In this document: positions 23,584-39,625 of the stretch, in pieces
Numbering within the stretch: position 1 is the first letter of the stretch
How the letters are laid out: each line of letters opens with the position of its first letter
From: an uncultured Acidobacteriota bacterium
Lineage (GTDB): Bacteria; Acidobacteriota; Blastocatellia; RBC074
NCBI GenBank assembly: GCA_903862855.1
Contig: CAIOZW010000017.1
Location: 315 to 64,314, forward strand
Direction of reading: 5' to 3'
DNA: 64,000 nt
Made by a program: the position numbers and the translations under genes
Notes under the pieces: generated by a model
Told to the model about the DNA's origin: nothing
The model's database searches: none
What the model saw: the letters and a program-made list of their open reading frames with translations, nothing else

Positions 23584-23668
23584 TTCCAGTCGATCCTGAT
23601 CCATCTGTAGAGCAACAGCAGGGTCAGTGATCCAAGCAGCAGCCACAATCCAACTCTCTGTGATCTGA

Positions 23669-24463
23669 TCACCTTTCACCTCCGCGTCTCCACCGTTGAG
23701 GCCAGGGAAGAAATGGACTTGTCCGGGCCACATAGTCAGCATAATCTGGTCGACTTACAAGAAGCCCCTTCTCCAGCAGCGGGACACCAGAGAAACGGCG
23801 CAAGAGCCAGGTCATGAGCAAAGGGCCGAGCACGAGCCAGAGATTGGCTGGCCAGTCAGCAAGGATGGATGGAAGTGAGAGCCCCCACCAGACCAGTGCA
23901 TCTCCAAAGTAGTTGGGGTGGCGCGTCCACGCCCAGAGACCACGGTCGAGAACCCTCCCCTTGTTGTCCGGATTTGCTTTGAATCTGGCCAGTTGCCAGT
24001 CCCCCACCGACTCAAAGATAAACCCGGTCGCCCAGAGAACGATCCCCAGTCCGTCGATGATCGAGATTGATCGACCTGATGCAGGGGCAAGCTGCACCGG
24101 CAGGGAGATAATCCAGATCAATCCCCCTTGAAACAGAAAGACGAGCGGCAGACTGAGAAGAGGAAAATTTCGGCCATAACGGGCTCTGATTGCCTGATAA
24201 CGTGGATCCTCGCCCCGGCCCAAGTTGCGCCATCCCAGATAGACCGCGAGGCGCAGCCCCCAGATGATTGTCAGTGGCAGACTGATGGCAAGCCGACCTT
24301 CCGGTTCTGCCGTGAAATGCCACCAGTGATATCCGGCAATGCCGGCGAATCCGGCTCCCCAGAAGATGTCGACAATGCTCGCATCACGTCTCCAGAGGCT
24401 GACCAGCCACAGTATAGTCGTTGCCCCAAGGATGATCGGGATGGTTTCAAGTGCCTGATTCAT
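23669..24463 (-). CDS. DUF1295 / steroid-5-alpha-reductase-like membrane protein
   Basis: A polytopic membrane protein carrying the RHPNYFGDALVWWGL motif characteristic of the DUF1295/ICMT-like family. Confidence 0.65.
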   Translation of the reverse strand: MNQALETIPIILGATTILWLVSLWRRDASIVDIFWGAGFAGIAGYHWWHFTAEPEGRLAISLPLTIIWGLRLAVYLGWRNLGRGEDPRYQAIRARYGRNFPLLSLPLVFLFQGGLIWIISLPVQLAPASGRSISIIDGLGIVLWATGFIFESVGDWQLARFKANPDNKGRVLDRGLWAWTRHPNYFGDALVWWGLSLPSILADWPANLWLVLGPLLMTWLLRRFSGVPLLEKGLLVSRPDYADYVARTSPFLPWPQRWRRGGER

Positions 24464-24485
24464 CTCTCTCCGCTCCTTCGACCTC

Positions 24486-25739
24486 TCAATTCAACTCCCA
24501 GACCCGCAAATATCCGGCATCCTTGATGAGCAGTCGGTCTCCTGTCAGCACTGGATGGGCCCAGGTCGGGCTGTCGGCAACCTGGTACTTTCGAACCAGC
24601 GTTGCTCCTTTTGAGGCAATGGTGGTCACGAAAAGCTCAGACTGTTCGGTCAAAGCCAGCAGGTATTCATTGGCAATCAGCATCGCGGCATTCTCTCCCT
24701 GGCGCGGATCGCCTGTCCAGAGCGTACGGCCACTCTCCAGATCGAGACAGAAGAACTGCCCCTTCTGTCGATGCGAGAAACCAAAGAGCCAGTTGCCAGA
24801 GATGACCGGTGAGTTCATGTACATCGAGACTTCGCGATTTTGCCAGACCTGATCGGTTACCCACCGGTTGTCGCGCCAGCCGATACGCCAGGCACTCACC
24901 CCTTTGTTGAGCCCCGAGAAGATGAGCAGATCCCTCCAGGCGATCGGCGTCACTGCATTCTGAATGTAGTCGGTCTCGAATGGAATCTTCCAGAGCAGGG
25001 TGCCATTATCGACCCAGATGCCAATCAGATATTTTTGTGACTGTGTAACAACCTGACGCTTGCCGGCAATCTCGATGACGATTGGAGAGGCATACCCGGG
25101 CCCATCACCATTCCAGATCCAGCGCTCTTGCCCGGTCTGCAGATCGAGCGCCACCAATCCTCCCTGATCCTGCCCACCGGCATGCAGAATAACCAGCCCG
25201 CGCTCGACCAGTGGTGACATTGCCGTACCGTAGAGCGGGGCTCGCGCTCCCAGCCGATCCCCAAACGGTCGGCGCCAGAGCAGTCGGCCGCGTGTCAGAT
25301 CATAGACCGAGAGGATCCCGGTAATTCCCAAGGTAATGAGGCGTCCCTCCGCAATGACCGGTGTCGACTTCGGCCCCTTGCCATGCGACCGTGCTGCCGG
25401 GTTCATCGCATACTCCACCGGATAGGAGTCCTGCCAGACTCTCCGGCCCGTCTTGAGGTCGATCGCCTGAATAACCTCGTTCTCGCCCAGGCGGGAATGA
25501 AGGTAGACTCGCCCACCCATTACCAGCGGACTAGAATGGCCTGCCCCAACCTCGATCTTCCATCCAGCACGGAGCTGCGGCGGCCAATTCTTCAGAACGG
25601 GCAGTCCCTCGATCCGCCCATCTCGGTTGACTCCTCTCCACTGCGGAAAGTCCTGCGCCTGAACATTGGTCTTTATCACCACAGCGCCAAACAGACTGCA
25701 GCAGAGTAGTATCTGAATGACCAGCTTGCTCTTACTCAT
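24486..25739 (-). CDS. Secreted PQQ-like beta-propeller repeat protein (BamB-like fold)
   Basis: A signal peptide and repeated blade motifs (QWRGVNRDGR..., GGRVYLHSRLG, LKTGRRVWQ, DLQTGQERWIW, GTLLWK). Confidence 0.7.
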   Translation of the reverse strand: MSKSKLVIQILLCCSLFGAVVIKTNVQAQDFPQWRGVNRDGRIEGLPVLKNWPPQLRAGWKIEVGAGHSSPLVMGGRVYLHSRLGENEVIQAIDLKTGRRVWQDSYPVEYAMNPAARSHGKGPKSTPVIAEGRLITLGITGILSVYDLTRGRLLWRRPFGDRLGARAPLYGTAMSPLVERGLVILHAGGQDQGGLVALDLQTGQERWIWNGDGPGYASPIVIEIAGKRQVVTQSQKYLIGIWVDNGTLLWKIPFETDYIQNAVTPIAWRDLLIFSGLNKGVSAWRIGWRDNRWVTDQVWQNREVSMYMNSPVISGNWLFGFSHRQKGQFFCLDLESGRTLWTGDPRQGENAAMLIANEYLLALTEQSELFVTTIASKGATLVRKYQVADSPTWAHPVLTGDRLLIKDAGYLRVWELN

Positions 25740-26000
25740 CTTCGTCCTCTTTATGATTTGTCCGACCAGACACGGCGGTTCTTCGTTGCCATAGTCTTAT
25801 GATTATCCTTGTCAAATCTCAAGCCTTGAGATCGATCATAGCATGTTCAGCAACCTGACTCGCGGCACGAGGCGAACAATCCGATCCCCCCCATCGTGGC
25901 AATATGTCAGAGCAGACCAATTATTGACCAGGTTACCTGGTATCCTGGAACCTGCCCCTGTCATTTTGAGCTCCGCCGATAGAACCTCCCCCTTTTTCAA

Positions 26001-26029
26001 TTGACATATGTTTATATTTTAATTAGATT
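26001..26029 (+). promoter_or_regulatory. Candidate sigma70-like promoter (TTGACA-17 nt-TAGATT), about 390 bp upstream of the orphan gene at 26421
   Basis: ttgacatatgtttatattttaattagatt, read from the sequence. Assigning it to this gene is speculative. Confidence 0.25.
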
Positions 26030-26232
26030 GCAGTTGTGTCTGAAGCAGTTATGGACTCCAAGCACCTCCGCCGCGAGACCTTTCGGACACCCCACACAGG
26101 ACATAGTAATTGTCAGTTGAATCTGCCCTTGCGAGGCATCAGATTACTTTTTGTATCTTTTGAAACACTATCTTGAGCTGGACTCATCACCTGCCAATGC
26201 TACCTGGTTTAACCGGCAGAAATAGGGACGCT

Positions 26233-26298
26233 GTTATTCATCTGCGATTACCGACCAGTGATTATTCATCAACATTCATTCACCGGCAATTATTCGAC
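26233..26298 (+). promoter_or_regulatory. Phased AT-rich repeats TTATTC(A/G) at about 27-28 bp spacing, plus related ATTCATTCACC / GATTTATCACC motifs
   Basis: ttattcat occurs at 26234 and 26262, and ttattcga at 26289. The repeats lie 120-190 bp upstream of the 26421 start. Confidence 0.4.
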
Positions 26299-26420
26299 TG
26301 CAGTTTTTCACCTGATTTATCACCGGGTTAAGGTGGACTAGCCCGTTTTCGCGCCGCTGGATATGGTCAAGTCACCAATCAATTCATCAGCCATTTAAAG
26401 CGCACCAGAGGAGGTAGAAG

Positions 26421-26891
26421 ATGTCCGATATGGAACTGAACATAAACTATCTGATTGCCTGTATCGATTCAATTAATCAACTCAAGGACGTCCCTGCGGC
26501 TGACGAGCTGAAGACGATGGTCAACGATTGGGTCGATAGCAAGATCACCACGGCGGTCAACGATCCTGACTCGGCTGTCAAAATCTACTATAACTGGAAG
26601 AAGATTTCAGGTGACTCCGAGGCGCAGAAACTCATCTCGTGGATCGAGGAAATGCCCATCTCAGACTCGTCGAATGAGCTCAAGGTCATCCTCAACAGGT
26701 TTGTCAGTGCAAAGCTGACTGAGGCTCTGGCCAATCCCGAGAACCGGATCAACTTCTTCCGAAGCTGGTTGAGCCTCTCAACCGAGAACGTGGACACTAC
26801 CTTCACAATCGTCATTGATAAGCCGGCTGGTGATGATGAGACGCCACTGAACCCTGGTGATACCGGAAGGCTCAACTGGCCTCGCTGGTAG
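26421..26891 (+). CDS. Orphan acidic protein (156 aa), low GC, with an internal tandem duplication of about 35 aa
   Basis: Repeat 1 is DELKTMVNDWVDSKITTAVNDPDSAVKIYYNW and repeat 2 is NELKVILNRFVSAKLTEALANPENRINFFRSW. A GAGGAGG RBS lies 7 nt upstream of the ATG. There is no signal peptide, and I do not recognise the family. Confidence 0.5.
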   Translation: MSDMELNINYLIACIDSINQLKDVPAADELKTMVNDWVDSKITTAVNDPDSAVKIYYNWKKISGDSEAQKLISWIEEMPISDSSNELKVILNRFVSAKLTEALANPENRINFFRSWLSLSTENVDTTFTIVIDKPAGDDETPLNPGDTGRLNWPRW

Positions 26892-27023
26892 CGGGGCCAA
26901 TTTCAGAAGATTTACAAGAGCGTGATTGAGTAAGTCCCTGATCCGCCGAACCGTCGAGCTGAATACTGAGCCCAACGGTTCGGCGACTTCTGTTTTGGAT
27001 GTGATTTCAGGATGGCAGTCGAT

Positions 27024-30000
27024 TCAGCTCTCACTGCGGAGTGATTCGAGAACGGGCATGCGGAGCAGGACTCGCAGTGCGAAGAGTGAGGCAAGCAGTC
27101 CGGTCGCAAGTACCAGCAGCAGAAGCAGTCCAAGGGAACCGAGTGAGCTGAGCGACCCTCTCTCGAGCAGTGCGGGGATGATCGCAATGAAGGCCGAGAG
27201 AGTACCAGTAAGTAATCCACCGGTCAGAAGCAGCAGGTTTTCGGCAATGATCATCACGGTGAGGTGAATGGAGCCAAATCCGATCGCAGTGAGGAGCGCA
27301 AGCTCGTGGCGGCGCTCGAGGACATTGCGCAGCAGCACTGCTCCGAGGCCAATCGTCCCGAGCAGTAGCCCGAGACTGCCAATCGACTGGAATGTCGAAA
27401 GGTAGGTATTCTCGACTACATGAAAGGCTGCCAGTTTTCGTGATGCGCTGGTCGCATCGAATCCAAAATCACTCAGCCGGTCTTCAAGAATAGCCGCGAT
27501 CTTGTCAGGATCGGTCCCCGCCGAGATTGGTAATTCCAGGCCAAACCAGCGATAACCATCCTCACGCGGGAAGAGACGAATAAAATGTGACTCGGCCATG
27601 AGCAGTTCGCTCTGCAGCAGACTATCGGCAAGGGTCGCAACGATCTGGACCGGCACCGCCTGGCCACTCGCTGCCGTTATCTGAAAGACCTCGCCGAGCT
27701 GGCGGTGGAGAACGTAATTCATCGAGTTGGCATCGACGATGATTGGAACAACTGTGCTATTTCTGTTGAGGAGTTCCCACGGATTGGTCACCGGTTCGAT
27801 CATTGAATGAAAATTGAACCTGTTGGCCGCAATGAATTCCGCCGGGAGCCCGAGAATCCTCGGCTGGACTGGCTGGTAGAGATTGAGACAGCTCGCATCA
27901 TCACCATTGCGCACCCGGAAACGAGTCACACGAAGACTGTTGAGCTCAGGGAGCTCTGATTCCTGAAGATTGAGTGCCTCGCGCCCTTCAGGAAGGTTGA
28001 GATTGTCGGCAAGAGGCAGCAGCGATTCAGCAACGAGCAGAAAGCCGCCAGTTCCTGATCGGGGGTTGCTGGTCGGGACCACCTCGGTGCGCCGGAAAGA
28101 CTCGACCGAGACGATGATGAAGGTCGCAGCGGCGATGAGAGCCATCGAGAGAATCGACCGGCCTGGCTGGGTAGTTGCCTGGCGAATCCCGAGTGCAAAG
28201 AGACCTGACCACCCCTTTCTGACCACACTCTGCCGGTCGACTCGCAGCCACCAGCTCCAGAGAATGAGAAGTGAGACGAGGAGCAGTGTCCCCGCTCCAA
28301 AGAATGCCGCGACCGGCATAAGGGTCTGACGTATGGCAAGTGTCACCAGAACCAGTGCGAGCAGGAGCAGCGTAAGTGCAACGAGGAGCCGAATCTGACG
28401 ACGATTGCCAAATGTGACGCCACTTCCCCGCCGGGGCTGTGAAGAGAACTGGCCTGCCAGTTGGCGGCGTGGTGAGGCCATCGAGGTTGAACGAACCGTC
28501 CACCAGATACAGACCAATGCGGCAAGTACGCCTGACAAGCCTCCGATCACCAGTGTGAGTGGCTCGATATGGAGTCGAAGCAGGCGTGTCCCGACTGCTC
28601 CAATCCACCATGTACGAAGCCCAAGCATCATCAGGCCGGCAAAGAGGATTGCCCCTCCCAGTCCAAGCCCTGCTCCAGCAAGCGCCAGAAGAGCCCCTTC
28701 ATAGAGAAAAATTGCGCGAATCGTGGCGATCTGAAAACCAAGGGCAAGGTAGAGGCCGATCTCACGGATCCGCTGTTCGATGCCCAACCGGAAGAAGAGA
28801 ACGACCAGAAGCAATGCCGAGACGACCAGAAAGAAGCTGAAGTAGCTGAAATAGGCCCCAAAATCTGTCGCCCCCTTCGCGGCGGCCGCGCCCTCCATTC
28901 GCACGGGCGTCGCAGTGAAACCACTCTGCGCCGGGCCGATCTGCTGACGGAGTTCCGTGGCAAGTCCCAACCGGTCGAGGCTGCGCGAGGCAAGCCTGAT
29001 CGAGGTGAGGGCTCCGTAACGGGTCGACCAGAGCGGCTGGGCATCGGCAAGAAGCAGAAATGCCTTTGGTGTAGCACGATAACGATCCCAGTAATCCTCG
29101 TCGACCTTGCGAACTCGGCGCAGGTCGATGGGAAAGGGCGGATCCCAGTCGGAGAGACTCTCCGCACCGGTGATCCCGGGATATTCAGGCGCGAGTTGAC
29201 GATCGGCAGCCAGACCGGTGATCGGTATCACACCAGCCAGTCGAAAGGTCGCCGACGCAGTCGACAGCCGCCCCTCATCCGCCCAGACATAGTATTCGAG
29301 GGTGACGTCCTGTCCCAACCGGGCGCCCAGATCACGAGCCGCCCATTCATTGAGAACCAGCGGGGGACGCTGGTCACCCTGGATGGAGACCAGTTGCGGG
29401 AGCTGCCCAGGTTCGACTGCCGTCACCAGCGAATATGGGACTTCTCGATCATCAACACGAATCGAGTTCGCAAGGTAGCTCAGGATCCGGTCCGACTGCA
29501 GGCCAGCACGGTTCGCGGTCAACTCGATGGAGTCTGCCAGAGCGCCACCGATAATCGCACTCTCTGTCTCGACGGCGACGACCTCCTCTCCGACCCGACT
29601 GTTGGATTCCACCTCCCGAATCCGTATTCCCTGATCATCGAGCGTCACTGTCTCACGAAGCAGCTCATTGGCAACCTCACGAGCCGCGGTCACCCCGGGC
29701 TGCGTGGCAAGCAGAATTATATTGACCCGTCCATCCCGGGGAAGATCGAGATCAATATTGCGTTGTAACTTCTCCAGCGGAATGAAGACCGCCCGAACTA
29801 TTCCCTGCCGCGGTTGAAGGGAGAACTCACCCAGTAGACTGGGCGGCAGAATCTCACGCACGGTGAGCCGAATCGTTCTGCCTGCCTCATCCCGACGTCC
29901 GTGAAGTGACTCGATCGGTATCGCGGTCGGAAGCTCGATCCGCACCGCGAGCATCTCACCCGCCGCGGCCCCAAGCTCCTCCGCAAGACCCGGACTGATC

Positions 30001-30407
30001 AGGGCCTCACTCCCCGACGGGCCTTCGATGTCCAGACCATGAAACTTCCAGAATCGCCCATCGACACCATAGACCTGAACATCGCCGGCCCGCGCTCCCG
30101 TCTCGTCACGACTCGCCACACCCTGCAATGCCAGCATTGGCACGCCATCGACAAAAGTCGCGGCGAAACCAGGTCTCCTTCGCAGATCGTCCATCAACTG
30201 GTCACGAAAGAGGGTGTTGGCAGTTATCACCAGGTCGGTTCGGCCAATTCTTCCGAGAACCAGCTCGCTCAAACTGCGCCGCACCGAGTCACCAACCATC
30301 AATGCTCCGCAGAGGACCGCCACGGCAGCCGCGACTCCGAGAATCACCGCGAGGTTGGTACGGCGAAACCAGATCAGATTGCGGCGAATCAGGATTCTTG
30401 TCTTCAT
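27024..30407 (-). CDS. Giant FtsX/MacB-type ABC transporter permease (1127 aa) with duplicated FtsX modules and large extracytoplasmic domains
   Basis: An N-terminal TM helix followed by a large periplasmic domain, and FtsX 4-TM bundles in the middle and at the C-terminus (...LALGFQIATIRAIFLYEGALLALAGAGLGL...; ...AIGFGSIHLTVMIIAENLLLLTGGLLTG...). It is immediately downstream of the ABC ATPase. Confidence 0.85.
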   Translation of the reverse strand: MKTRILIRRNLIWFRRTNLAVILGVAAAVAVLCGALMVGDSVRRSLSELVLGRIGRTDLVITANTLFRDQLMDDLRRRPGFAATFVDGVPMLALQGVASRDETGARAGDVQVYGVDGRFWKFHGLDIEGPSGSEALISPGLAEELGAAAGEMLAVRIELPTAIPIESLHGRRDEAGRTIRLTVREILPPSLLGEFSLQPRQGIVRAVFIPLEKLQRNIDLDLPRDGRVNIILLATQPGVTAAREVANELLRETVTLDDQGIRIREVESNSRVGEEVVAVETESAIIGGALADSIELTANRAGLQSDRILSYLANSIRVDDREVPYSLVTAVEPGQLPQLVSIQGDQRPPLVLNEWAARDLGARLGQDVTLEYYVWADEGRLSTASATFRLAGVIPITGLAADRQLAPEYPGITGAESLSDWDPPFPIDLRRVRKVDEDYWDRYRATPKAFLLLADAQPLWSTRYGALTSIRLASRSLDRLGLATELRQQIGPAQSGFTATPVRMEGAAAAKGATDFGAYFSYFSFFLVVSALLLVVLFFRLGIEQRIREIGLYLALGFQIATIRAIFLYEGALLALAGAGLGLGGAILFAGLMMLGLRTWWIGAVGTRLLRLHIEPLTLVIGGLSGVLAALVCIWWTVRSTSMASPRRQLAGQFSSQPRRGSGVTFGNRRQIRLLVALTLLLLALVLVTLAIRQTLMPVAAFFGAGTLLLVSLLILWSWWLRVDRQSVVRKGWSGLFALGIRQATTQPGRSILSMALIAAATFIIVSVESFRRTEVVPTSNPRSGTGGFLLVAESLLPLADNLNLPEGREALNLQESELPELNSLRVTRFRVRNGDDASCLNLYQPVQPRILGLPAEFIAANRFNFHSMIEPVTNPWELLNRNSTVVPIIVDANSMNYVLHRQLGEVFQITAASGQAVPVQIVATLADSLLQSELLMAESHFIRLFPREDGYRWFGLELPISAGTDPDKIAAILEDRLSDFGFDATSASRKLAAFHVVENTYLSTFQSIGSLGLLLGTIGLGAVLLRNVLERRHELALLTAIGFGSIHLTVMIIAENLLLLTGGLLTGTLSAFIAIIPALLERGSLSSLGSLGLLLLLVLATGLLASLFALRVLLRMPVLESLRSES

Positions 30408-30441
30408 TGAAGATTCCCTCGACTACCCACTTGATCTCTTC

Positions 30442-31110
30442 TCAGAGTTCCCGAAGCTGGCGATTCAGCATTCGGTAACGAAGCGGGAATCGCGCCGCCA
30501 GCTCATCACTGTGTGTCACCACGACAAGTATGGTCTGATGCTGCTCATGAAGTTCGAGCAGGAGTTCGGCGACCAGGCCGGCTGAATCCTGATCGAGATT
30601 ACCAGTCGGCTCGTCACAGAGCAGGAGTTGCGGCTCGGTGACCAGTGCCCGCGCAAGAGCGACCCGCTGCTTCTCACCACCGGAGAGCTCGGACGGTCGA
30701 TGGTCGATCCTCGCACCAAGTCCAACCCGTTCGAGCAGAGACTTGGCACGGGCGGCAAAGTCTGTCTTTGACGGTGGAGCAACAATGGTCGGAATGAGGA
30801 CGTTCTCAAGAACCGTACACTGGGGAAGCAGGTGATGATCCTGGAAGACAAAACCGATCTGGCGATTACGAAAACTGGCCAGATCGGCAGCGGTCATCGC
30901 ATACGGGTTCTCACTCCCAAGCATAATCGTCCCGGAGGTCGGCGGTTCGAGACCACCAAGAAGATAGAGAAGCGTACTCTTACCACTACCTGATGGACCC
31001 ATGATCGCAACGGCCGCGCCTCGATCGAGAGTCAGGTTGATGTCATCGAGAATCGGCAGGACTCCACGAGCCGTCGAATACTCCTTGCTGACGTGCAGTA
31101 TTTGAAGCAA
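30442..31110 (-). CDS. ABC transporter ATP-binding protein (MacB/LolD-type)
   Basis: Walker A GPSGSGKST, Q-loop, signature LSGGEKQRVALARAL, and Walker B LLLCDEPTGNLD. Confidence 0.9.
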   Translation of the reverse strand: MLQILHVSKEYSTARGVLPILDDINLTLDRGAAVAIMGPSGSGKSTLLYLLGGLEPPTSGTIMLGSENPYAMTAADLASFRNRQIGFVFQDHHLLPQCTVLENVLIPTIVAPPSKTDFAARAKSLLERVGLGARIDHRPSELSGGEKQRVALARALVTEPQLLLCDEPTGNLDQDSAGLVAELLLELHEQHQTILVVVTHSDELAARFPLRYRMLNRQLREL

Positions 31111-31113
31111 TGA

Positions 31114-32469
31114 TCAGCCCTCCAGCATCACCGGATCCATCTCCGGAAAGTTCAAGGCAGCGACCCGGGCATAGATGTCGAGTGCGCTGGTCGCCATGGT
31201 CTCGACCCGGTAATGCTCACGAACACCACGCTGCCCCTCAGACCCAAGATCGCGTGCATACTCCGGGTTGCGACACAATTCTGCCACCCGCTCCGCAAGG
31301 TCGAGACTGTCTCCCGGCTGGAAGAGCACCCCTCCTCCGGTACGGGCGAGTATCTCCGGGAACGATCCCCACTGCGGCTGGACCACCGGGACTCCACTGG
31401 CAAGCGCTTCGAGAACTGGCAATCCTTTCGGTTCGGCATAGGTCGTTGGCATTGAGAGCAGATCGACCCTCCGCAGAAATTCCAGCTTCTCCTGCCGCTC
31501 CAGCTTGCCGTGATAGTGAAAATCGGCGGTCAGACCGGCCGTCGCTATCCGCTGCTCGATCTCCCGTAGATACCCGGCATGCTCCGGCGCCAGGTAGCCA
31601 GCCACGTCGAGCCGCAAAGAGTCGATCTTCATCACTCTCCGCAAATGGACAAAGGCCTCGACCAGCAGGTGCAGTCCCTTCTCCGGTGCGATCCGCGCAA
31701 AATAGCCAATCGTGAATGGCCGCTCACCCTCGGCACGCAGCTCCGCTCGCGACTCATATTCATCGTAATCGCGAAGGTTGATTCCAAGTGGCAGAACGTG
31801 AATCTTCTGGCGTGGTATGGAGAGGTAGTCAGACATCCGGTCAGCATAGAAATCACTGACCGCGATAAAGGCATCGACGTGCTGCGAGTGCTGTCTAATC
31901 AGCTCGAGGGCCTGCGAGTGGTAAGGTTCGCGCAACCCGTCAAGAAAGAGATCCTCGCCCTGGAGGGTGCAACAGACGGGACGCCCGGTTGCCGCGCGAA
32001 TCGGACCAGCCAGGCCAAGGAGCATCGAGTTCTGCATATCGACAATGTCATACTCGTATCCGCTCCGCCTCTCCGCAACCAGCCAGTCAACCAGCTTGCC
32101 AACCTCCTTGCGCTGGTGACCCTGCTCACCACGCAGCATGGAGATCGTCAGCTCGCCGAGTGAATCGGGATCGACAGCAATCGAGCGCTTTGAGGCTGCC
32201 TGCAAGGCCCGGCGTGAATCCCAGAGCCGGTCGAGCCAGCGTGGCGTATGTCTGAAGATTGCACTGTGCTGCTCGAGATAGACGCTGATCCCGCCAAAGA
32301 AGACCTTCCGGTTGCTCACCCCGGGCTCATCAGTCAATGGTGGAGTATAGAGCGGGAGCAGGTTGACCTCGTGCCCTTGGCGAAGCAGCTCTGAGGCCAG
32401 GGCATTGTCACGCAGACAGCTCCCACAGTACATACCGGCAGCGCCCGCTGTCAGGTAGAGGATTCTCAT
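31114..32469 (-). CDS. Family 4 glycosyltransferase (GT-B), 451 aa
   Basis: The C-terminal glycos_transf_1 motifs EPKGLPVLEALASGVPVV and GGGVLFQPGD. Its stop lies 3 nt from the ATPase start, so it is in the same operon. Confidence 0.75.
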   Translation of the reverse strand: MRILYLTAGAAGMYCGSCLRDNALASELLRQGHEVNLLPLYTPPLTDEPGVSNRKVFFGGISVYLEQHSAIFRHTPRWLDRLWDSRRALQAASKRSIAVDPDSLGELTISMLRGEQGHQRKEVGKLVDWLVAERRSGYEYDIVDMQNSMLLGLAGPIRAATGRPVCCTLQGEDLFLDGLREPYHSQALELIRQHSQHVDAFIAVSDFYADRMSDYLSIPRQKIHVLPLGINLRDYDEYESRAELRAEGERPFTIGYFARIAPEKGLHLLVEAFVHLRRVMKIDSLRLDVAGYLAPEHAGYLREIEQRIATAGLTADFHYHGKLERQEKLEFLRRVDLLSMPTTYAEPKGLPVLEALASGVPVVQPQWGSFPEILARTGGGVLFQPGDSLDLAERVAELCRNPEYARDLGSEGQRGVREHYRVETMATSALDIYARVAALNFPEMDPVMLEG

Positions 32470-32502
32470 AGCCGTCTGCGCCCCCTGCTCCCGGCAACCT
32501 TC

Positions 32503-33933
32503 TCAAGCTCCCGCCTGGGCCACCCGCTGAAAGGCCCGCCGCGCATAGAGATGCTCAAAGAGGTTCCCCTCGTGCGGCTGATCCCAGGCAATCTTCATCG
32601 TCGGGATCGGCCCGATATTGAGGCGATCGACGAGCGGCGAAGCAATCAGCTTCTCGATCAGCCGCGGATCCTCGGTCAACGCCGTCACGACCAGCGTTGG
32701 GCCAAGACGCTCCGGCAGCTCACGCTGATCGACCTCGACGACACTGGCAAATGGAAAGAGAAACTCACGATTGGCGAGCGGATGATCCGGTGACTCACAA
32801 TGGACTACTGTCGGCAAGAGATATGTCGCATCATTGAGGGTCACGACCCGTGAGCCACGAAGTTCACCGCTGACATCGGTCGCTCCACCCTCGCGGAGCC
32901 CTGAGTCGACAATCGCCGAGATCCGCTTGGCAATCTCGGGATTGGCAAACGGAGCAAGCAACGCCTGCTCATCCGTCACATCGCGTGGCACGATCTCCGT
33001 AAATCGCTTCGCCAGTGCTGCTGCTATCTCCCGGCCATGCCGCGGTACCCAGACACCCGAGGCATTGATACAAGATCTGCCTCCATTCTCGGTGATCGAG
33101 GCAACTAAGACGTCGAGGTACTTCTCCCAGTCGTCGATCAGATCTTCTCCAATGACCACCTTCGAATAACCCGTCCCGTGCAACTCGATCCTTGAGTCAT
33201 TGGCATACTTCCCAACCGAAGCAGAATCCCCAAAGAACATCCCCCGGCCACAGTTCTGGAGAATCGCTCCCGATCCACCGTGGTCAGTCGGATAGTAACT
33301 GAAGGCCTCGGCCGGCACACCAGCCTTGATCAGTGCCTGCGCGATCCGGTACGGAGACCAGGGTTCGGCACTGCCCGGCTTGAGCACGAGCGGAATCTTC
33401 ATCGCGATCGAGGGAATCCAGAGCGAATGAACTCCCGGCGAGTTACTCGGCAGAATCACCCCCAGCGAGCTGGTACGCGGATAGAAGCTCACCGCGTGTC
33501 CATCGTGCGTCCCATAGCCACGATCGAGAATCGCCGTGTCAAGACCCCTCGTCAGACCGGCGAGGACACTTGCCATCTCGGCCATGACTCCGCTGATCTT
33601 GTTCATGTTCTTCCGCACCAGAACGTGCGGCATACCCGTCGTCGCCGAAAGCTGCGCGACATAATCTTCCGGAGACTGCATCTCATCCCCGACTGGCAGC
33701 GTCGCTGTCATGAAATACCCGGCAGCCTCCCGCGACATGGCGATGAGCTGATCGGTCGTGAAGGCCTCCAGCGCTCTTCGCCCTGTCTCCTGATCGAGCA
33801 GATCGCGTCGGATCAGCCCGGCATTGGCCTGGCTGATCTCGACAAATGTCTCGCGGGTCCGAAAGTGGGGAACCCTCGCCACATCAACACTGCGGTATGA
33901 CTCTCCCTTACGAACTATCGGTATGTGCAGCAT
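32503..33933 (-). CDS. ALDH-fold acyl-CoA reductase, LuxC-like (long-chain fatty acyl reductase family). The start is at the internal MLHIPIV, which has a GGAGGG RBS.
   Basis: Roughly 475 aa with an aldehyde-dehydrogenase-like fold. The catalytic-Cys region is GGRSCINASGVWVP. It is tightly coupled to the upstream LuxE-like gene (13-nt gap), and this pairing is the hallmark of LuxC/LuxE modules. Confidence 0.5.
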   Translation of the reverse strand: MLHIPIVRKGESYRSVDVARVPHFRTRETFVEISQANAGLIRRDLLDQETGRRALEAFTTDQLIAMSREAAGYFMTATLPVGDEMQSPEDYVAQLSATTGMPHVLVRKNMNKISGVMAEMASVLAGLTRGLDTAILDRGYGTHDGHAVSFYPRTSSLGVILPSNSPGVHSLWIPSIAMKIPLVLKPGSAEPWSPYRIAQALIKAGVPAEAFSYYPTDHGGSGAILQNCGRGMFFGDSASVGKYANDSRIELHGTGYSKVVIGEDLIDDWEKYLDVLVASITENGGRSCINASGVWVPRHGREIAAALAKRFTEIVPRDVTDEQALLAPFANPEIAKRISAIVDSGLREGGATDVSGELRGSRVVTLNDATYLLPTVVHCESPDHPLANREFLFPFASVVEVDQRELPERLGPTLVVTALTEDPRLIEKLIASPLVDRLNIGPIPTMKIAWDQPHEGNLFEHLYARRAFQRVAQAGA

Positions 33934-33946
33934 CGCTCTCTCCCTC

Positions 33947-35026
33947 CTAGTAGACTCCCTCAACCACCGAGGTCGCAAACCGCGAGAAGGGACGCACATT
34001 ACGTACCCCGTCCCACGGATAGGTCTCGCACGGCCGTTCCCGTTCCGCCTCGTCTCGCTCGAGGAACCTGGGCATGAAGAACTCCCTCGTCAGTGTCGTC
34101 AGACGCACCCGCCCCGTCTCACCGTAATCGACGATTCGTGTCGGGTTGTCAGGATCGACCACCTCGAGGATCGCCCGCGGCATCGGCGGATAGTAGATGA
34201 TCGCGTAATTGTCGGCTGGATCGAAGGGTTTATGTGTCGCCAGACCCATCAGCGTATTGCCATAGGTCGGAGCAAAATAGGCACCTTCCATCAGCTCTTC
34301 CCTCGCAAAGCGATGAAACTGCGGCGTCATCTCCGTGCCTCCACAGAAGACTCCGGTGATCCCGGCCTTCTTCAGCGAGATCTTCTCACAGAGCGCCTCG
34401 AGCAACTTCGGTGTGGCAAAGATGCACTTGACCGAATCGTGGGCACGAAGAATCGTCAGCGCCTGGTCAATGACGTGCGCCTTGTACTTCTCCATCATCT
34501 GCATCTCACCCATCTTGATCAGCTTGATCACCCAGCGGGGATCGAGGTCGACACAGAACGAGATCCCGCCGCGGTGCTGAGCGAGGTGCTCGACAGCCAG
34601 ACGCAACCGGCGTGGCCCACTCGGTCCGAGCATCAGCCAGTCCGCCCCCTTCGGAAAGTACTCATCCGGCAGTGTCCCGCTGAAGTGCTCATAATCGATC
34701 CGGAAATCTTCGATACTGATGCGCGACTTCGGAATTCCCGTACTGCCACCCGTCTCGAAGACATAGACCGGCTGATCGGCCATCCCCTTCGGAACCCACC
34801 GCCTCACCGGGCCTCCGCGCAACCACTCGTCCTCGAAGGAGCCGAATCGATCGAGATCCTCATAGGTCTTGACCTCCCGGCGCGGATCCCAGTCGAGCTT
34901 CGACGCAAAGTCGAGCCAGAAGGGCGAGCCGGTCTCCGGCGAGAAGTGCCAGGCAACCATCTCACGAACATGCGCATCGAGCGCCTCTTTCCAGTTCTTT
35001 CTGTCAGCTTGCGGTATGGCAGTCAT
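33947..35026 (-). CDS. Adenylate-forming acyl-protein synthetase, LuxE/PaaK-like (359 aa)
   Basis: An adenylation core motif VFETGGSTGIPKS (the T-G-G-S-T-G-x-P-K pattern). The short length of about 360 aa is typical of the LuxE/PaaK subfamily rather than full ANL ligases. Confidence 0.55.
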   Translation of the reverse strand: MTAIPQADRKNWKEALDAHVREMVAWHFSPETGSPFWLDFASKLDWDPRREVKTYEDLDRFGSFEDEWLRGGPVRRWVPKGMADQPVYVFETGGSTGIPKSRISIEDFRIDYEHFSGTLPDEYFPKGADWLMLGPSGPRRLRLAVEHLAQHRGGISFCVDLDPRWVIKLIKMGEMQMMEKYKAHVIDQALTILRAHDSVKCIFATPKLLEALCEKISLKKAGITGVFCGGTEMTPQFHRFAREELMEGAYFAPTYGNTLMGLATHKPFDPADNYAIIYYPPMPRAILEVVDPDNPTRIVDYGETGRVRLTTLTREFFMPRFLERDEAERERPCETYPWDGVRNVRPFSRFATSVVEGVY

Positions 35027-35108
35027 ACTTGCTCCAATTTGGTTCTTTGATCCCCGGGGATTTCCCCGAGCAGACTTTTCACCAGTTCAATGACGGCACT
35101 GGCCGTGA

Positions 35109-35819
35109 TCAGGTTTCAAGCCGGAATGGATTAAAGTTGGTTTCGCGGTCGTAGTAGTCTTCGTTCTCTCTCTTCTTCAGAAAATTGACGATCCGGTAGG
35201 TGAGTGGAGTCGCAAGAATCTCCCACGAGACCTTGAGGGTGTAGTTGGTGATCAGTACCTTGACCAGCAGCGAGGTCGACCAGCCATCGGCCGCATAGAA
35301 TGCCAGCGGGTAGAAGATCAACGAGTCGACACCCTCACCACAGATCGTCGAGCCAATCGTTCGCATCCAGAGCCACCGACCTCCAGTCAGCACCTTCATC
35401 CGCGCCAGCACAAAAGAGTTTGTAAACTCCCCGGCGCAGAAGGCGATCAACGAGGCAATGACCACTCGTGGCGTATTGCCAAAGATCAGATCATAGGCCG
35501 CCTGGTGTGGCCAGTCAGGGGCGGGCGGCAGCGCGACGACAACGTAGCTCATGAAGGCCGCAAAGATCAGCCCACTGAACCCGGCCCAGATAACCCGCCG
35601 TGAACGTGCATATCCGTAAACTTCGGTCAGGATGTCTCCAAACAGATAGCTTAGTGGAAAAAAGAGGATCGCTGTGCCGAAAGGTATCCCGGCAACCATG
35701 CTGACCTTCTGCACGCCGATTACACCTGAACAGAGCAGGACGATCACGAACCCGGCCATGATCAGGTCATAATACCTGTAGTTGCGGCGCTCACTGACGT
35801 TATAGTCTATCTCTTCCAA
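35109..35819 (-). CDS. yhhQ: Queuosine-precursor transporter family (YhhQ/DUF165, VUT family), with a TTG start
   Basis: VSMVAGIPFGTAILFFPLSYLFGDILTEVYGYARSRRVIWAGF aligns with the E. coli YhhQ core. It has 6 TM helices. A GGAGA RBS lies 7 nt upstream of the TTG. Confidence 0.75.
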   Translation of the reverse strand: MEEIDYNVSERRNYRYYDLIMAGFVIVLLCSGVIGVQKVSMVAGIPFGTAILFFPLSYLFGDILTEVYGYARSRRVIWAGFSGLIFAAFMSYVVVALPPAPDWPHQAAYDLIFGNTPRVVIASLIAFCAGEFTNSFVLARMKVLTGGRWLWMRTIGSTICGEGVDSLIFYPLAFYAADGWSTSLLVKVLITNYTLKVSWEILATPLTYRIVNFLKKRENEDYYDRETNFNPFRLET

Positions 35820-36135
35820 GTGGGTCTCCGGGTATTCTGCAGAAATTTTTATTGTCCGCTCAGTTGACCATACCGCAGGTTTATCCGTCCAGCAGAATCA
35901 GCTCAATTCAGTCGGGTTCTGGATGTATTGCCATGTTCTGGATTTTGTTTATGACAAAATCCCCAAAATCCCCAAGATATTGAACCGTCTCTGGGCCAGT
36001 CTGTCTGGGCCTGAAAAGATCAAGCTCAAGACTTGACCATCAATTTCACTTTTGCCAGAAAATTGTTCGGATTTTGTGTCCCGAATCAATGCTGCTCAAA
36101 AGAGATTACGTCGTCGGCAAGGTGTGCCACAAATT

Positions 36136-36822
36136 TCAGTTGATTACCGATGGATTGCGGAGATCGAGCAGAGATGTCAGCCAGGAGTTGACATCCTGGA
36201 GACAATCGTAGGAGATCTCATGACCAACCGGGTATTCACGGTAGGTCAGCTCGACCGGCAGCTCCGCGAGAAGCCTTCTCGATTCGCGGCCGTGGTGAAT
36301 CGGCAGCACGACATCGCCAGTTCCGTGAGTGACAAGAACAGGCAACCCGGCAAGGGCACCCGGGTCGGGGATCTTCGCGATGGTCTCGGTAATGACCCGG
36401 CCACTCAGGGCGACAACCCCGGCGGCAAGTCCCGGATTGAGAAGCGCCAGCGAGAGGCTGATCATCGCCCCCTGACTGAAACCAAGCAGGTAGACGTCAG
36501 TCCGATCGATCTGGTACTGAGCAATCACACCGGCGATGAACTGGCAGAGAGTCTCACGTGCGGCCTCGACCTCACGCGGATCGATCATTATGCCCTCGGT
36601 CGAAAACCCCAGATTGAACCAGGCGTGCGACATCGGTCCAAGCGAAATCGGCGCCCGTGGACTGATCACCAGAAATCGGCCATCAACATAGGGGGCGAGT
36701 GAGAAGAGATCATCCTCGTTGGCGCCATAACCGTGAAGAAGCAGCAGCAGTGGCGCCCCGCGCCCCTCTCCAGTTCTTGGCAGAGCGGCATGATGGATGA
36801 GATTCAATCCTTGTGCAGACAT
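36136..36822 (-). CDS. Alpha/beta hydrolase, phospholipase/carboxylesterase family
   Basis: LLLLLHGYGANEDDL...VYLLGFSQGAMISL (the GFSQG nucleophile elbow)...HGTGDVVLP. Confidence 0.8.
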   Translation of the reverse strand: MSAQGLNLIHHAALPRTGEGRGAPLLLLLHGYGANEDDLFSLAPYVDGRFLVISPRAPISLGPMSHAWFNLGFSTEGIMIDPREVEAARETLCQFIAGVIAQYQIDRTDVYLLGFSQGAMISLSLALLNPGLAAGVVALSGRVITETIAKIPDPGALAGLPVLVTHGTGDVVLPIHHGRESRRLLAELPVELTYREYPVGHEISYDCLQDVNSWLTSLLDLRNPSVIN

Positions 36823-37114
36823 CGGTAATCCTTCCGTTTCCGTGACAATCTACCGGCAATCTGACGACTCGCCGGGCCAGCTTTCGTTTACTTGAGAGAA
36901 GGTTATTCTATTTGGCGATCGCCCAATTGGCAAAAACAGTCGGGGTACCATATTCTTATATTTTTCCTGCTGTACCCTCTCGCCTGGTGTCAAAAATGGA
37001 TCGTCCGGCGCTCGCCCTGCCCGTCCAAAATATCGGGTTCGGAGAACGCCACTCCAGGCATTCGGCGATGGCGTCATTAAGAAGCGAACCTTGCTTGGCT
37101 GAGAGATAAAAAAG

Positions 37115-39625
37115 ATGAGTCTGCGCGATGCCCTGCTCCACCCTGCCCTGATCGATCCCCGCCAGTGGGGAGAGATCAATCTCTTCGAGTATGCCTTCAC
37201 CCCGGATCGTTCACCAGTTGAGGGTGACGAGCACCAGACTCCTGAGCTGCGGTTCCGTGTCGAACATATGGATCTCGATTTGCGATTCGATCTGCCGACA
37301 CAGAGCATCAGCGGGGCGGCCATCTGTCGGATCTCCCCCATCAACTCTGGACTCGACGAGCTCAGTCTCGATTCCTCTGAGCTGGAGATCTCGTCGATCA
37401 CCCTGACCGGGGAGCGGCCGATTCCGCTCACCTGGGAGACTTTTCGTGACTCGATCACCATCCGCCTCGACCGTTCCTACAATCGTGGTGAGCTGATCTC
37501 GCTCCGAATCGTCTACGCAGCCCGTCCCCGCAAGGGGCTCTTCTTTATCAGCCCTGATCAGTCCTATCCCTCCAAACCGACCCAGGTCTGGTCTCAGGGT
37601 GAGAACGAGGATGCCCACTGGTGGTTTCCCTGTCACGATGTGACCAACCAGAAGATGACGACAACGCTGAGGGCCACGGTCGACCGCGACTTCGTTGTCG
37701 TCTCCAATGGCAGATTGGTCGAAGAGAAGGATAATCCTGATGGGACCCGCACCTTCCACTGGCAACTGGACCAGCCGCACCCGGCCTATCTTGTCTCGGT
37801 GGTCATTGGCAGGTATGAGGTGATCCATGACACGAGCGGTCGAGTTCCGCTTGCCTACTACCTCTACCCGGAACGGACCGCTGAGGGAGAGCGGCTCTTT
37901 GCCCACACTCCGGAGATGATCGAGTTCTTCTCACGCAAGTTCGGCGTCGACTATCCCTATCCCAAATACTCTCAGGCCCTCGTCGACGACTTTCTCTTCG
38001 GCGCAATGGAGAACACCTCGGCGACGACCATGACCGACCGCTGCCTGCTCGACGAGCGAGCCGCCCTCGACATCAATTATGACGACATCGTCGCCCACGA
38101 ACTTGCCCACCAGTGGTGGGGTGATCTGGTCACCTGCAAGGACTGGACCCAGATCTGGCTCAACGAGAGCTTTGCGACTTACTCTGAATACCTCTGGCGC
38201 GAAGAGACCGAGGGGCCTGACAACGCCCGCTGGGCCCTCTTCCAGGACTACCTGGTCTATCTGCGGGAGGATCTGACGAGCCATCGCCGTCCGATGGTCT
38301 GCCGCAAATACCGCTTCTCGGAAGAGCTGATGGATCGCCACGCCTACGAAAAGGGTGCCTGCATCCTTCACATGCTGCGCGGAATCCTTGGAGATGATCA
38401 GTTCTTCCGCTCCCTCGGCCACTACCTGCGTCAGCATGCCCACCAGGCGGCGGAGACACACGATTTTAAGGTGGCCATCGAGGAGGCGACCGGACGCAAC
38501 CTCCACTGGTTCTTTGAGCAGTGGATCTGGAATGCCGGCTACCCGGAACTGGAGGTCCGTCGAGACTGGGAGAATGGACAACTCCATCTGACGATCCGCC
38601 AGATTCAAGCGCTCGAGGGTGACGGACCGGTCTTTCGTCTCCCGGTCGAGATCGAGGCAACTCTTGCCGATGGATCGACCCTCTCCTGGCAGATCGAGAT
38701 CGGACGCGCCGAACAGGAGATCTTTCTCGCCTGCCCGACCCGGCCCTCGCTGGTCCTCTTCGACAAGGGCGAGCGAATCTTCAAACTGCTCCGCTTTGAA
38801 AAATCGCTCGACGAGCTGATTCTCCAGCTCAGATCGGCATCCGAGCTGATGGACCGCGTCCGCGCCGCCCGCGAACTTGCCTCCTGGAGATGCCCAGGAT
38901 CGATCGACACCTTGCGCGATATACTCAACAGTAATGATCATCAAGGGGTACGCATGGCGGCCGCCACCGCTCTCGGTGAGATTGGTGGAGAAACGTCGCG
39001 TCAGATCCTCATTACCGCCTGCCAGACGATCACCACCCTCCCGGTACTGCGCAGCGCAATCCTTGCCCTCGGACAGATCGCCGACCAGCGCGATATCCAT
39101 ATTTTCCGCGACCTGATCACAACCGCCCCGGGATACTTTGCCTCGGTCGCCGCCGTGCGCAGCCTTGCCAGCCTTGGTGTTGCCGACCTAACCGGTGAGG
39201 CCCGCGAGGTTCTCCTGCGGACCATCGAGGTCCGTTCCTGGCAGGAGGTGATCGCCGCCGCGGTCTTTCACGGCTTCAACCACGCCCGCGATCGACGCGC
39301 TGTCGATCCGGCTCTCAGTCACGTCGCTTACGGTCAACCTCTCCCGATCCGCCTCGCCGCCATCGGCTGCCTTGCCACGCTCGGCCTGGAGTTCCGGAAG
39401 GAGGAGAACTCTCCCCTGGCCGAAAAGATCCATCAGCGCCTGCTCGATCTGCTCTCCGATCCAAATCATCGTGTTCGCACTGCTGCCATTCGGGCTCTTG
39501 GCAAGATCGGCAATCCCGCTGCCCTCCCCAGACTCCGTCTTCTTCAAAATCAGGAATGTCTCGATATGATCCGCGGAGCGCTGCTCGATGCCATTACCAA
39601 ACTCGAGCATTCGACAAGATCCTGA
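37115..39625 (+). CDS. M1-family zinc aminopeptidase (aminopeptidase N-like) with C-terminal HEAT repeats
   Basis: GAMEN exopeptidase motif, HELAHQWWGDLVT (HExxH), and the downstream glutamate in LNESFATYSEY. The C-terminal repeats (AATALGEIGGETSRQILI...AIRALGKIGNPAAL) are HEAT/PBS-lyase-like. Confidence 0.85.
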   Translation: MSLRDALLHPALIDPRQWGEINLFEYAFTPDRSPVEGDEHQTPELRFRVEHMDLDLRFDLPTQSISGAAICRISPINSGLDELSLDSSELEISSITLTGERPIPLTWETFRDSITIRLDRSYNRGELISLRIVYAARPRKGLFFISPDQSYPSKPTQVWSQGENEDAHWWFPCHDVTNQKMTTTLRATVDRDFVVVSNGRLVEEKDNPDGTRTFHWQLDQPHPAYLVSVVIGRYEVIHDTSGRVPLAYYLYPERTAEGERLFAHTPEMIEFFSRKFGVDYPYPKYSQALVDDFLFGAMENTSATTMTDRCLLDERAALDINYDDIVAHELAHQWWGDLVTCKDWTQIWLNESFATYSEYLWREETEGPDNARWALFQDYLVYLREDLTSHRRPMVCRKYRFSEELMDRHAYEKGACILHMLRGILGDDQFFRSLGHYLRQHAHQAAETHDFKVAIEEATGRNLHWFFEQWIWNAGYPELEVRRDWENGQLHLTIRQIQALEGDGPVFRLPVEIEATLADGSTLSWQIEIGRAEQEIFLACPTRPSLVLFDKGERIFKLLRFEKSLDELILQLRSASELMDRVRAARELASWRCPGSIDTLRDILNSNDHQGVRMAAATALGEIGGETSRQILITACQTITTLPVLRSAILALGQIADQRDIHIFRDLITTAPGYFASVAAVRSLASLGVADLTGEAREVLLRTIEVRSWQEVIAAAVFHGFNHARDRRAVDPALSHVAYGQPLPIRLAAIGCLATLGLEFRKEENSPLAEKIHQRLLDLLSDPNHRVRTAAIRALGKIGNPAALPRLRLLQNQECLDMIRGALLDAITKLEHSTRS

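Follow-up and report, generated by a model that had tools for sequence, protein, structure and literature searches.

The five-gene operon analyzed here, whose genes we call A to E, lies on the minus strand of a 64,000-nucleotide stretch of DNA (hereafter the window) from an uncultured Acidobacteriota bacterium of the class Blastocatellia (assembly GCA_903862855.1, contig CAIOZW010000017.1, positions 315 to 64,314). The main finding of this study is that A and B very probably encode a two-component carboxylate reductase of the GriCD/EhpFG type—predicted from sequence to take an acid through an acyl-adenylate (acyl-AMP) to an aldehyde—and that this pair is tied to a family 4 glycosyltransferase (GT4; gene C) and to an ATP-binding cassette (ABC) system (genes D and E) that we assign with high confidence to the YbbAP/BceAB-like type VII systems. 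Arguing by analogy with known systems, we propose that these parts would act in one chain, from A/B to C and from C to a D2E complex, and we give this whole chain a probability of roughly 0.4. What is new is the combination of a GriCD-type pair, a GT4 enzyme, and a YbbAP-like system; the parts are all of known kinds, and no categorically new mechanism is demonstrated. The five genes are the following.

33947-35026, minus strand: gene A, predicted stand-alone ANL adenylation enzyme of the EhpF/GriC type, 359 amino acids (aa), with the P-loop motif ETGGSTGIPK and without the C-terminal ANL subdomain
32503-33933, minus strand: gene B, partner of the aldehyde dehydrogenase (ALDH) superfamily, EhpG/GriD type, predicted NAD(P)H-dependent acyl-adenylate reductase, 476 aa
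31114-32469, minus strand: gene C, cytoplasmic glycosyltransferase of family GT4 (GT-B, retaining), 451 aa, CGSC motif conserved near the N terminus
30442-31110, minus strand: gene D, ABC ATPase of the LolD/YbbA/FtsE/MacB nucleotide-binding-domain group, 222 aa
27024-30407, minus strand: gene E, single-chain type VII ABC permease, 1127 aa

All five open reading frames (ORFs) appear in a six-frame ORF list at the coordinates given in the initial annotation of this DNA, and the intergenic gaps computed from these coordinates—13 nt (A-B), 33 nt (B-C), 3 nt (C-D), and 34 nt (D-E)—agree with it as well. For B, the coordinates held up and the accompanying length of 498 aa did not. That length counts from an in-frame ATG further upstream, at 33999, and B would then overlap A by 53 nt. 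Because the homologues of B are 472-477 aa long and share a start at the methionine of MLHIPI, we take the gene to be 32503-33933, encoding 476 aa. A to E is a genuine co-transcribed operon, and the earlier view of it as a pair for carboxylate activation and reduction followed by a GT4 enzyme and a MacB-superfamily ABC system is supported at the level of folds (AMP-binding, Aldedh, GT4, ABC_tran, two FtsX modules, and MacB_PCD).

The closest guide to A is EhpF from Pantoea agglomerans (PDB 3l2k/3hgu), which was matched by phmmer with 161 bits (E 3.3e-46, 32% identity) over residues 19-359 of A and 23-366 of the 366 residues of EhpF, an alignment that reaches the last residue of both proteins. 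In Pfam, A has a weak AMP-binding match alone (30.7 bits), and neither LuxE (PF04443) nor AMP-binding_C or AMP-binding_C_2 (PF14535) is matched by hmmscan even at E<=10. The P-loop motif, ETGGSTG(I/V)PK, is invariant. Databases annotate A as "hypothetical" or as a "PaaK-like" ligase. The LuxE/PaaK-like label that it had been given here has to be dropped: the protein has no PF14535 domain, ends where EhpF ends, and has no paa genes in the window flanks, nor is it a phenylacetate-CoA ligase in an aromatic catabolic context. Plasmid-borne relatives with 32-40% identity include Pantoea ehpF, Streptomyces genes named "arylcarboxylate reductase" by NCBI, and haloarchaeal genes, and the pairing of an adenylase with an ALDH is also seen in Pantoea (ehpF-ehpG), Proteus, and the haloarchaeon Halalkalicoccus. 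Two more distant relatives are fusions, of an EhpF-like domain with a class-III aminotransferase (P0326, 824 aa) or with a Zn-alcohol dehydrogenase (P0370, 725 aa), which suggests that acid-to-aldehyde-to-amine and acid-to-aldehyde-to-alcohol routes exist elsewhere in the EhpF-like family. Since both fusion partners consume aldehydes, these architectures support aldehyde production by A/B.

A similar picture emerges for B, whose nearest named relative is EhpG (119 bits, E 2e-33, 26% identity), with the ALDH-family partner from Halalkalicoccus at 112 bits and comparable identity (26-27% for the two). Pfam returns Aldedh (70.3 bits), one spurious RecX hit, and nothing else at E<=10, so that LuxC (PF05893) is unmatched even at this threshold; ALDHs in the PDB score at most 54 bits. 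As had been anticipated, B is not placed in any generic ALDH family, all matches to NCBIfam ALDH equivalogs being far under cut-off. Residues N164, C288, G235, G253/G255, E390, and H454 are invariant in all 57 orthologues of B and are also found in EhpG. In an ALDH-type protein such as B, Asn164 is the oxyanion asparagine and Cys288 the nucleophile. The C-terminal PHEG motif of B has a counterpart in EhpG as well (PHEG/PHDG). How atypical B is as an ALDH is shown by a canonical aldehyde dehydrogenase encoded in the same window (17499-19064, plus strand), which scores 467 bits for Aldedh against 70 for B. A structural search with the AlphaFold model of B returned only generic ALDHs, without sub-class information.

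We assign A/B to the GriCD/EhpFG family because of the full-length homology to EhpF, the missing C-terminal ANL domain, the adjacency of the partners, and the catalytic residues. The likeness extends to each of these features: A aligns with EhpF over its full length and neither has the C-terminal ANL subdomain, B and EhpG have the catalytic Cys and Asn and the C-terminal PHEG/PHDG in common, and the two genes are adjacent with the adenylase first. The known pairs belong to the grixazone pathway of Streptomyces griseus (GriC/GriD) and to the D-alanylgriseoluteic acid pathway of P. agglomerans (EhpF/EhpG). EhpF and EhpG reportedly have a proposed role in the reduction of phenazine-1,6-dicarboxylate. 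Homology with both pairs suggests that the A/B reaction would run in the direction of reduction. In PMC10179220 (citing Suzuki et al. 2007 J Antibiot 60:380), GriC is described as forming the acyl-AMP of 3-amino-4-hydroxybenzoate (3,4-AHBA) and GriD as reducing it to the aldehyde. There are clear differences too. Identity is just 32% for A-EhpF and 26% for B-EhpG, the A clade is one tight group that is not inside a phenazine or 3,4-AHBA pathway, and the window pair is tied to a GT4 enzyme and an ABC system and spread phylum-wide, whereas the known pairs occur in sporadic antibiotic clusters. Our literature search found no paper combining these gene types in Acidobacteria and no use of the term "arylcarboxylate reductase," and no annotation of the combination was found either.

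The initial annotation had called the pair LuxE/LuxC-like, but it differs from LuxE and LuxC in family. PF04443, PF05893, and PF14535 are all unmatched at E<=10, and EhpF and EhpG are closer. On sequence grounds, A/B would be a functional analogue of LuxE/LuxC that stands outside those families: both systems combine an ATP-dependent acyl activator with an ALDH-clan reductase, and both would reach the aldehyde through an enzyme thioester. LuxE acylates itself and hands the acyl group to LuxC, and the two are accompanied by the LuxD transferase and luciferase; the window operon has neither a LuxD transferase nor a luciferase.

Conservation of the gene set across related genomes is the second line of evidence. 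The window itself matches contigs from an uncultured lineage of freshwater Acidobacteriota. In a scan with one genome per GTDB species, A was present in at least 580 genomes; it has more than 8000 close database relatives, the best 120 of which are all at least 79% identical. The best 80 genomes are nearly all metagenome-assembled genomes (MAGs) of Acidobacteriota (Blastocatellia/Pyrinomonadaceae, Vicinamibacteria, and Bryobacteraceae/Solibacteraceae), a few carrying the database labels Acidimicrobiia, Clostridia, or Bifidobacteriaceae, and no cultured host was found among these best 80 genome loci or the named cluster members, all of which are MAGs. We counted linkage in 50 related loci for which the full 10 kb was available on either side. 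All five genes were present in 41 of them, in the order and orientation of the window (34 loci), with A divergent from B-C-D-E (5 loci), or in the order A-C-B-D-E (2 loci), and A-B-C was present, with C adjoining A/B, in 46. The A-E arrangement is thus not due to chance, and the prediction that it would be conserved in related genomes was borne out.

Some of these loci have layouts of their own. In six loci labelled Acidimicrobiia (L001-L005, L018), A is divergent from B-C-D-E as in the Vicinamibacterales loci L026 and L030, which are also their nearest relatives (85-88% identity for A, ~70% for B), and the operon runs on with a 194-aa ORF and genes for a SpoU methylase, a PD40 beta-propeller, and a DegT aminotransferase; this may reflect either cross-phylum transfer or a taxonomic mislabel. 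In L033 (3722-4828; also L057 and L084), the order is A - C - A' - B' - propeller - D - E, in which A' is a second adenylase paralogue, 68% identical to the window A, and B' is a divergent ALDH partner (47% identity). This is a duplicated reductase module.

A evolves much more slowly than its neighbors. Over the same loci, A is on average 78.8% identical to its counterpart in the window, B 62.2%, C 55.6%, D 62.0%, and E 47.7%, and among 1.84 billion representatives the A clade has essentially one full-length 50%-cluster representative (71%), followed by full-length relatives of at most 46%. Four-fold degenerate sites are 41% identical in A as against 32-37% in B-E, near saturation. Because synonymous sites are near saturation, the conservation must be ancient and at the protein level, and the same observation led us to reject nucleotide-level constraint, an overlapping gene, and recent transfer as its cause. 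A contains no TTA, CTA, or TCA codons and has the highest third-position GC content (GC3) of the five genes. A 408-aa antisense ORF over A (33824-35050, plus strand) was considered as a case of dual coding and rejected: its frame is codon-aligned, it exists since A lacks these three codons, and we judge it to be a codon-bias artefact. Similar antisense ORFs also lie over B, C, and E. One possible explanation of the conservation is that A sits in a tightly docked complex and has a function for most of its surface.

C is recognized in Pfam by Glycos_transf_1 (93.6 bits) and Glyco_transf_4 (61.3 bits), both over cut-off, and a PDB search returned generic GT4 hits only, such as MshA and GlgM. No NCBIfam equivalog was attained for A, B, C, or E; the best match for C was EpsE, with 93.5 bits against a cut-off of 400. 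The N-terminal loop of GT4 enzymes usually carries a Gly-rich motif. In C, this loop has a CxxC motif, CGSC (residues 15-18, window 32413-32427) within GMYCGSCLRDN, whose C15 and C18 are conserved among 57 orthologues of C. A TLQGEDLF block is also conserved. A role in anti-phage defence, raised by a marginal Pfam hit to a GT4-conflict family (26.5 against a cut-off of 26), was rejected since PADLOC was negative: its models gave generic ABC-ATPase similarity for D only, and nothing for A, B, C, E, or the neighboring beta-propeller P described below.

The ABC system is of a different kind than initially thought. D matches ABC_tran in Pfam (129 bits) and, in NCBIfam, LolD TIGR02211 (253 bits, cut-off 307.75), YbbA (199 bits), and the DevA family (165 bits), while E matches FtsX twice together with MacB_PCD. 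A hydropathy profile and an AlphaFold model (mean predicted local distance difference test score, pLDDT, 76) give E the following layout: transmembrane segment (TM) 1, extracytoplasmic domain 1 (~55-510), TM2-4, TM5-7, extracytoplasmic domain 2 (~780-987), and TM8-10. When this model was submitted to Foldseek, the best match was YbbAP (9ge7/9ge6, E 1e-14), ahead of BceAB, LolCDE, MacB, and HrtBA. Its description as a MacB-type exporter, whose permeases are half-permeases with 4 TM, therefore does not stand: E is a single-chain YbbP/BceB-like protein with 10 TM, and no adaptor or TolC/outer-membrane-factor gene was found in the window flanks or in the recurrent neighbor clusters inspected. A tripartite pump of the MacAB-TolC or DevBCA-HgdD kind was rejected on these same grounds and on the DevC score of E (TIGR01185, 25.6 against a cut-off of 290), and identity with LolCDE was rejected because D stays below the LolD cut-off and lolCE scores 16 against 362. 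Both extracytoplasmic domains contain strongly conserved blocks, APEYPGI...DWDPPFP...R.VR..DEDYW in domain 1 (residues ~400-470) and GDDASCLNLYQP in domain 2 (residues ~835-853), which fall within 27800-29300 of the window and could mark a ligand or partner site.

Two known systems are instructive for comparison. YbbAP-TesA of Escherichia coli (PMC12646458) likewise consists of a permease whose two FtsX modules lie in one chain and an ATPase that is a protein of its own, neither system has a membrane-fusion or TolC partner, and both have a periplasmic protein encoded nearby; the E model finds its best structural match in YbbP, and YbbA is a match of D. The differences are that E and YbbP are only 13% identical, that E has 1127 aa to the 804 of YbbP and that its first extracytoplasmic domain is much larger, that the candidate partner here is a beta-propeller and not a thioesterase, and that E. 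coli lacks the tie to cytoplasmic biosynthetic enzymes. Export of cytoplasmic products is not a function of type VII ABC systems such as FtsEX and BceAB (PMC12646458). The other system makes the heterocyst glycolipid of Nostocales, a fatty-alcohol glycoside that is glycosylated by HglT and exported by DevBCA-HgdD (PMC6161253). It would be a functional analogue of the window operon in that a reduced acyl chain is glycosylated and handled by a MacB-superfamily ABC system, the ATPase of which belongs to the family that D matches with 165 bits. The heterocyst alcohol comes from a polyketide synthase, not from a GriCD-type reductase. The DevC protein, a half-permease with 4 TM, acts together with two partners, the adaptor DevB and a homologue of TolC, neither of which is encoded here. 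The statement that no characterised system has this exact architecture remains correct, although it overlooked this functional analogue.

A further gene, on the same strand beyond E, probably encodes a sixth, periplasmic accessory component.

24486-25739, minus strand: P, secreted PQQ_2/BamB-like beta-propeller, 417 aa, with an N-terminal signal peptide

P scores 114 bits for PQQ_2 and has a signal-peptide-like N terminus. Of 82 loci, 25 have a homologue no more than 600 nt from a core gene, and in L013, L014, and L059 it sits between A and B. In the loci labelled Acidimicrobiia, the operon has the PD40 beta-propeller instead. P was considered as a BamB orthologue and rejected (TIGR03300, 56 bits against a cut-off of 285); it may have a role in handling the product. 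Two other genes recur beside the cluster, downstream of E and usually convergent with it: one for a TonB-dependent-receptor-like outer-membrane protein (OMP_b-brl_4) of ~1050-1090 aa in 14 loci, and one for a 150-aa, 4-TM EamA-like protein in 13 (the loci listed for the two being L026, L032, L034, L038, L043, L050, L053, L061, L064, L067, L071, L073, and L079).

We propose that the operon would work as follows. A would use ATP to convert a carboxylic acid to an acyl-adenylate, and, because it lacks the C-terminal ANL subdomain, it should be unable to perform the usual thiol transfer. The acyl group would pass instead to C288 of B as a thioester and be reduced with NAD(P)H to an aldehyde, which is the ALDH reaction run in reverse. 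C would then move a sugar from a nucleotide-sugar to this reduced product or to something derived from it, or else it would make a glycosylated acid for A and B to reduce. Finally, ATP hydrolysis by D2E would move its large extracytoplasmic domains and draw an amphiphilic product out of the inner membrane at the outer leaflet. Like other type VII ABC systems, D2E would not pump across the bilayer, and the product would be handed on, probably to P, or released. For the last two steps we argue from gene linkage and from analogy with YbbAP-TesA (PMC12646458) and DevBCA-HgdD (PMC6161253), and we also infer the order of the steps and the lipidic nature of the product, which may be a fatty aldehyde or alcohol glycoside or an acylated glycolipid. 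In its most far-reaching form, this chain would be a phylum-wide envelope-lipid pathway—GriCD-type reduction of a membrane fatty or dicarboxylic acid, glycosylation by the GT4 enzyme, YbbAP-like extraction, and delivery by the propeller to the outer envelope—which is an idea that we regard as doubtful in this full extent. More speculatively still, the reduced acyl product would feed the ether-lipid chemistry, of the branched glycerol dialkyl glycerol tetraether (brGDGT) type, known in Acidobacteriota.

Several observations weigh against this chain. No experimentally characterised member of the A clade was found, and the characterised substrates of GriC and EhpF are all aromatic acids, none of them lipids. 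The AlphaFold model of B, which shows a generic ALDH fold, is only moderately confident (pLDDT 67), and the position of the ALDH general base is Glu in 54 of 57 orthologues of B, the other three carrying a natural E250Q, whereas it is Leu in EhpG. Since this Glu is what an aldehyde-oxidising ALDH needs, B may instead work in the oxidative direction. No TM segment is predicted in C and no feature for membrane association was detected in it, and the core set A-E encodes no flippase even though a type VII ABC system does not itself bring its substrate across the bilayer. A-B-C occurs without the full set in five more of the loci with full flanks, one of which also has D, and A occurs without B-E within 10 kb in three, which shows that the ABC module is not obligatorily linked to A-B-C.

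This last observation is at the heart of one alternative, in which A-B-C would be a cytoplasmic pathway to a glycosylated small metabolite or cofactor and D-E, with or without P, an FtsEX/BceAB-like envelope machine with an unrelated task, for instance remodelling, detoxification, or activation of a partner. It is in keeping with the five loci in which A-B-C has no E within 10 kb, with the three that have A alone, with the insertion of unrelated genes between C and D in several loci, and with the fact that FtsEX and BceAB export no cytoplasmic products (PMC12646458). Still, we find it distinctly unlikely that the two halves are independent when the five genes are together in 41 of 50 loci and stay together in co-linear and divergent arrangements alike, and when C and D are 3 nt apart in the window and have ORFs that abut or overlap in L001. 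Another alternative starts from the retained general-base Glu and reverses the chemistry: B would oxidise an aldehyde, A would adenylate the resulting acid and, with no thiol carrier involved, join it directly to an amine or hydroxyl group of a sugar or glycoconjugate that C has made, and D/E would handle the acylated glycoconjugate, a product that the "acylated envelope glycolipid" of the initial annotation would fit. ANL enzymes can indeed be amide or ester ligases acting from the adenylate alone. We nevertheless consider this reversal improbable, since B is far from all oxidising ALDH equivalogs, the fusions in the distant family are with consumers of aldehydes (aminotransferase and alcohol dehydrogenase) and not with producers, and the homologous pairs GriC/GriD and EhpF/EhpG are those for which genetics and co-expression point to reduction.

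The chemistry may also be right and the product different. A, B, and C could reduce and glycosylate an aromatic or other small carboxylate for release as a signal, metallophore, or antibiotic, possibly with re-uptake through the TonB and EamA proteins. All characterised relatives—GriCD, EhpFG, and the Streptomyces "arylcarboxylate reductases"—act on aromatic acids in secondary metabolism, the receptor-like and EamA-like genes recur in 14 and 13 loci, respectively, and MacB-family pumps such as PvdRT export pyoverdine. What makes a secreted small molecule unlikely is that no gene for aromatic-acid biosynthesis or other tailoring is conserved nearby, that secondary-metabolite clusters do not normally persist across classes in hundreds of species with one of their enzymes still 79% identical, and that type VII ABC systems carry no cytoplasmic solutes across the membrane. 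TonB-dependent receptors are, moreover, very abundant in Acidobacteriota, and their adjacency could be chance. The literal Lux model, in which LuxE/LuxC-type reduction of a fatty acid is followed by glycosylation and export by a MacB-type pump, fares worst. It correctly captures the ATP-dependent activation and subsequent NAD(P)H reduction on an ALDH-clan protein that would be common to both systems, it can point to E as a member of the MacB/FtsX superfamily, and it has a precedent in heterocyst glycolipids, fatty-alcohol glycosides exported by a MacB-type system (PMC6161253). However, its family-membership part is already refuted by the sequences, which lack PF04443 and PF05893 at E<=10 and whose relatives EhpF and EhpG act on aromatic acids, and the 10-TM single chain of E, its DevC score, and flanks free of adaptor and TolC genes speak against the pump, which leaves this model highly improbable.

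Between E and a convergent ORF there is one feature of note.

26945-26984, strand not assigned: perfect 10-bp inverted repeat, GCCGAACCGT, a 20-nt spacer, and ACGGTTCGGC, read from the sequence

This repeat lies 40 nt past the E stop codon, has no T-run after it, and is a possible transcript end; a terminator scan made no call after E, the repeat included. No sigma-70 promoter was called between A and the gene upstream of it, and a search of 23000-38000 for riboswitches and cis-regulatory RNAs (Rfam, E<=1) gave only three sub-threshold chance hits. That upstream gene, on the same strand and 82 nt from A, encodes a Vut_1/YhhQ-type queuosine-precursor transporter (35109-35819, minus strand), and its position next to A is retained only in the nearest, Blastocatellia-type relatives (12 loci). 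The convergent ORF (26421-26891, plus strand), between E and P, encodes an acidic protein of 156 aa without a family match; it is a called gene in close relatives and was not found in more distant loci. Judging from the sequences, genes for a LytS-like sensor kinase and a LytTR-type response regulator lie upstream of A in five loci of the Vicinamibacterales type (L029, L034, L052, L054, and L073), and in one Vicinamibacterales locus (L042, 11287-14972) a sodium:solute-symporter-like protein and a ~600-aa peptidase-like ORF are encoded between A and B. A sodium:solute symporter also precedes the EhpF-like/ALDH pair of Halalkalicoccus (L088). A shared aminotransferase partner was rejected, as the Aminotran_5 protein near the window cluster and the aminotransferase beside A in L001 are unrelated.

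These findings have implications beyond the window. The enzyme pair was previously known from antibiotic pathways only, and its occurrence here points to a possible role in primary metabolism or in the envelope, while two-component carboxylate reductases that are independent of a thiol carrier are of interest for biocatalysis. D/E with P would be a second natural case in which a single-chain system of type VII has a periplasmic partner dedicated to it. If the envelope-lipid pathway proved true, the near-invariance of A would be the mark of an essential complex of several tightly docked enzymes. Acidobacteriota rank with the most abundant bacteria of soil and freshwater and their envelope biochemistry has been little tested directly; for them, the A-E operon, read as a GriCD/EhpFG-type carboxylate reductase joined with a glycosyltransferase and an extractor like YbbAP, provides a concrete biochemical hypothesis.

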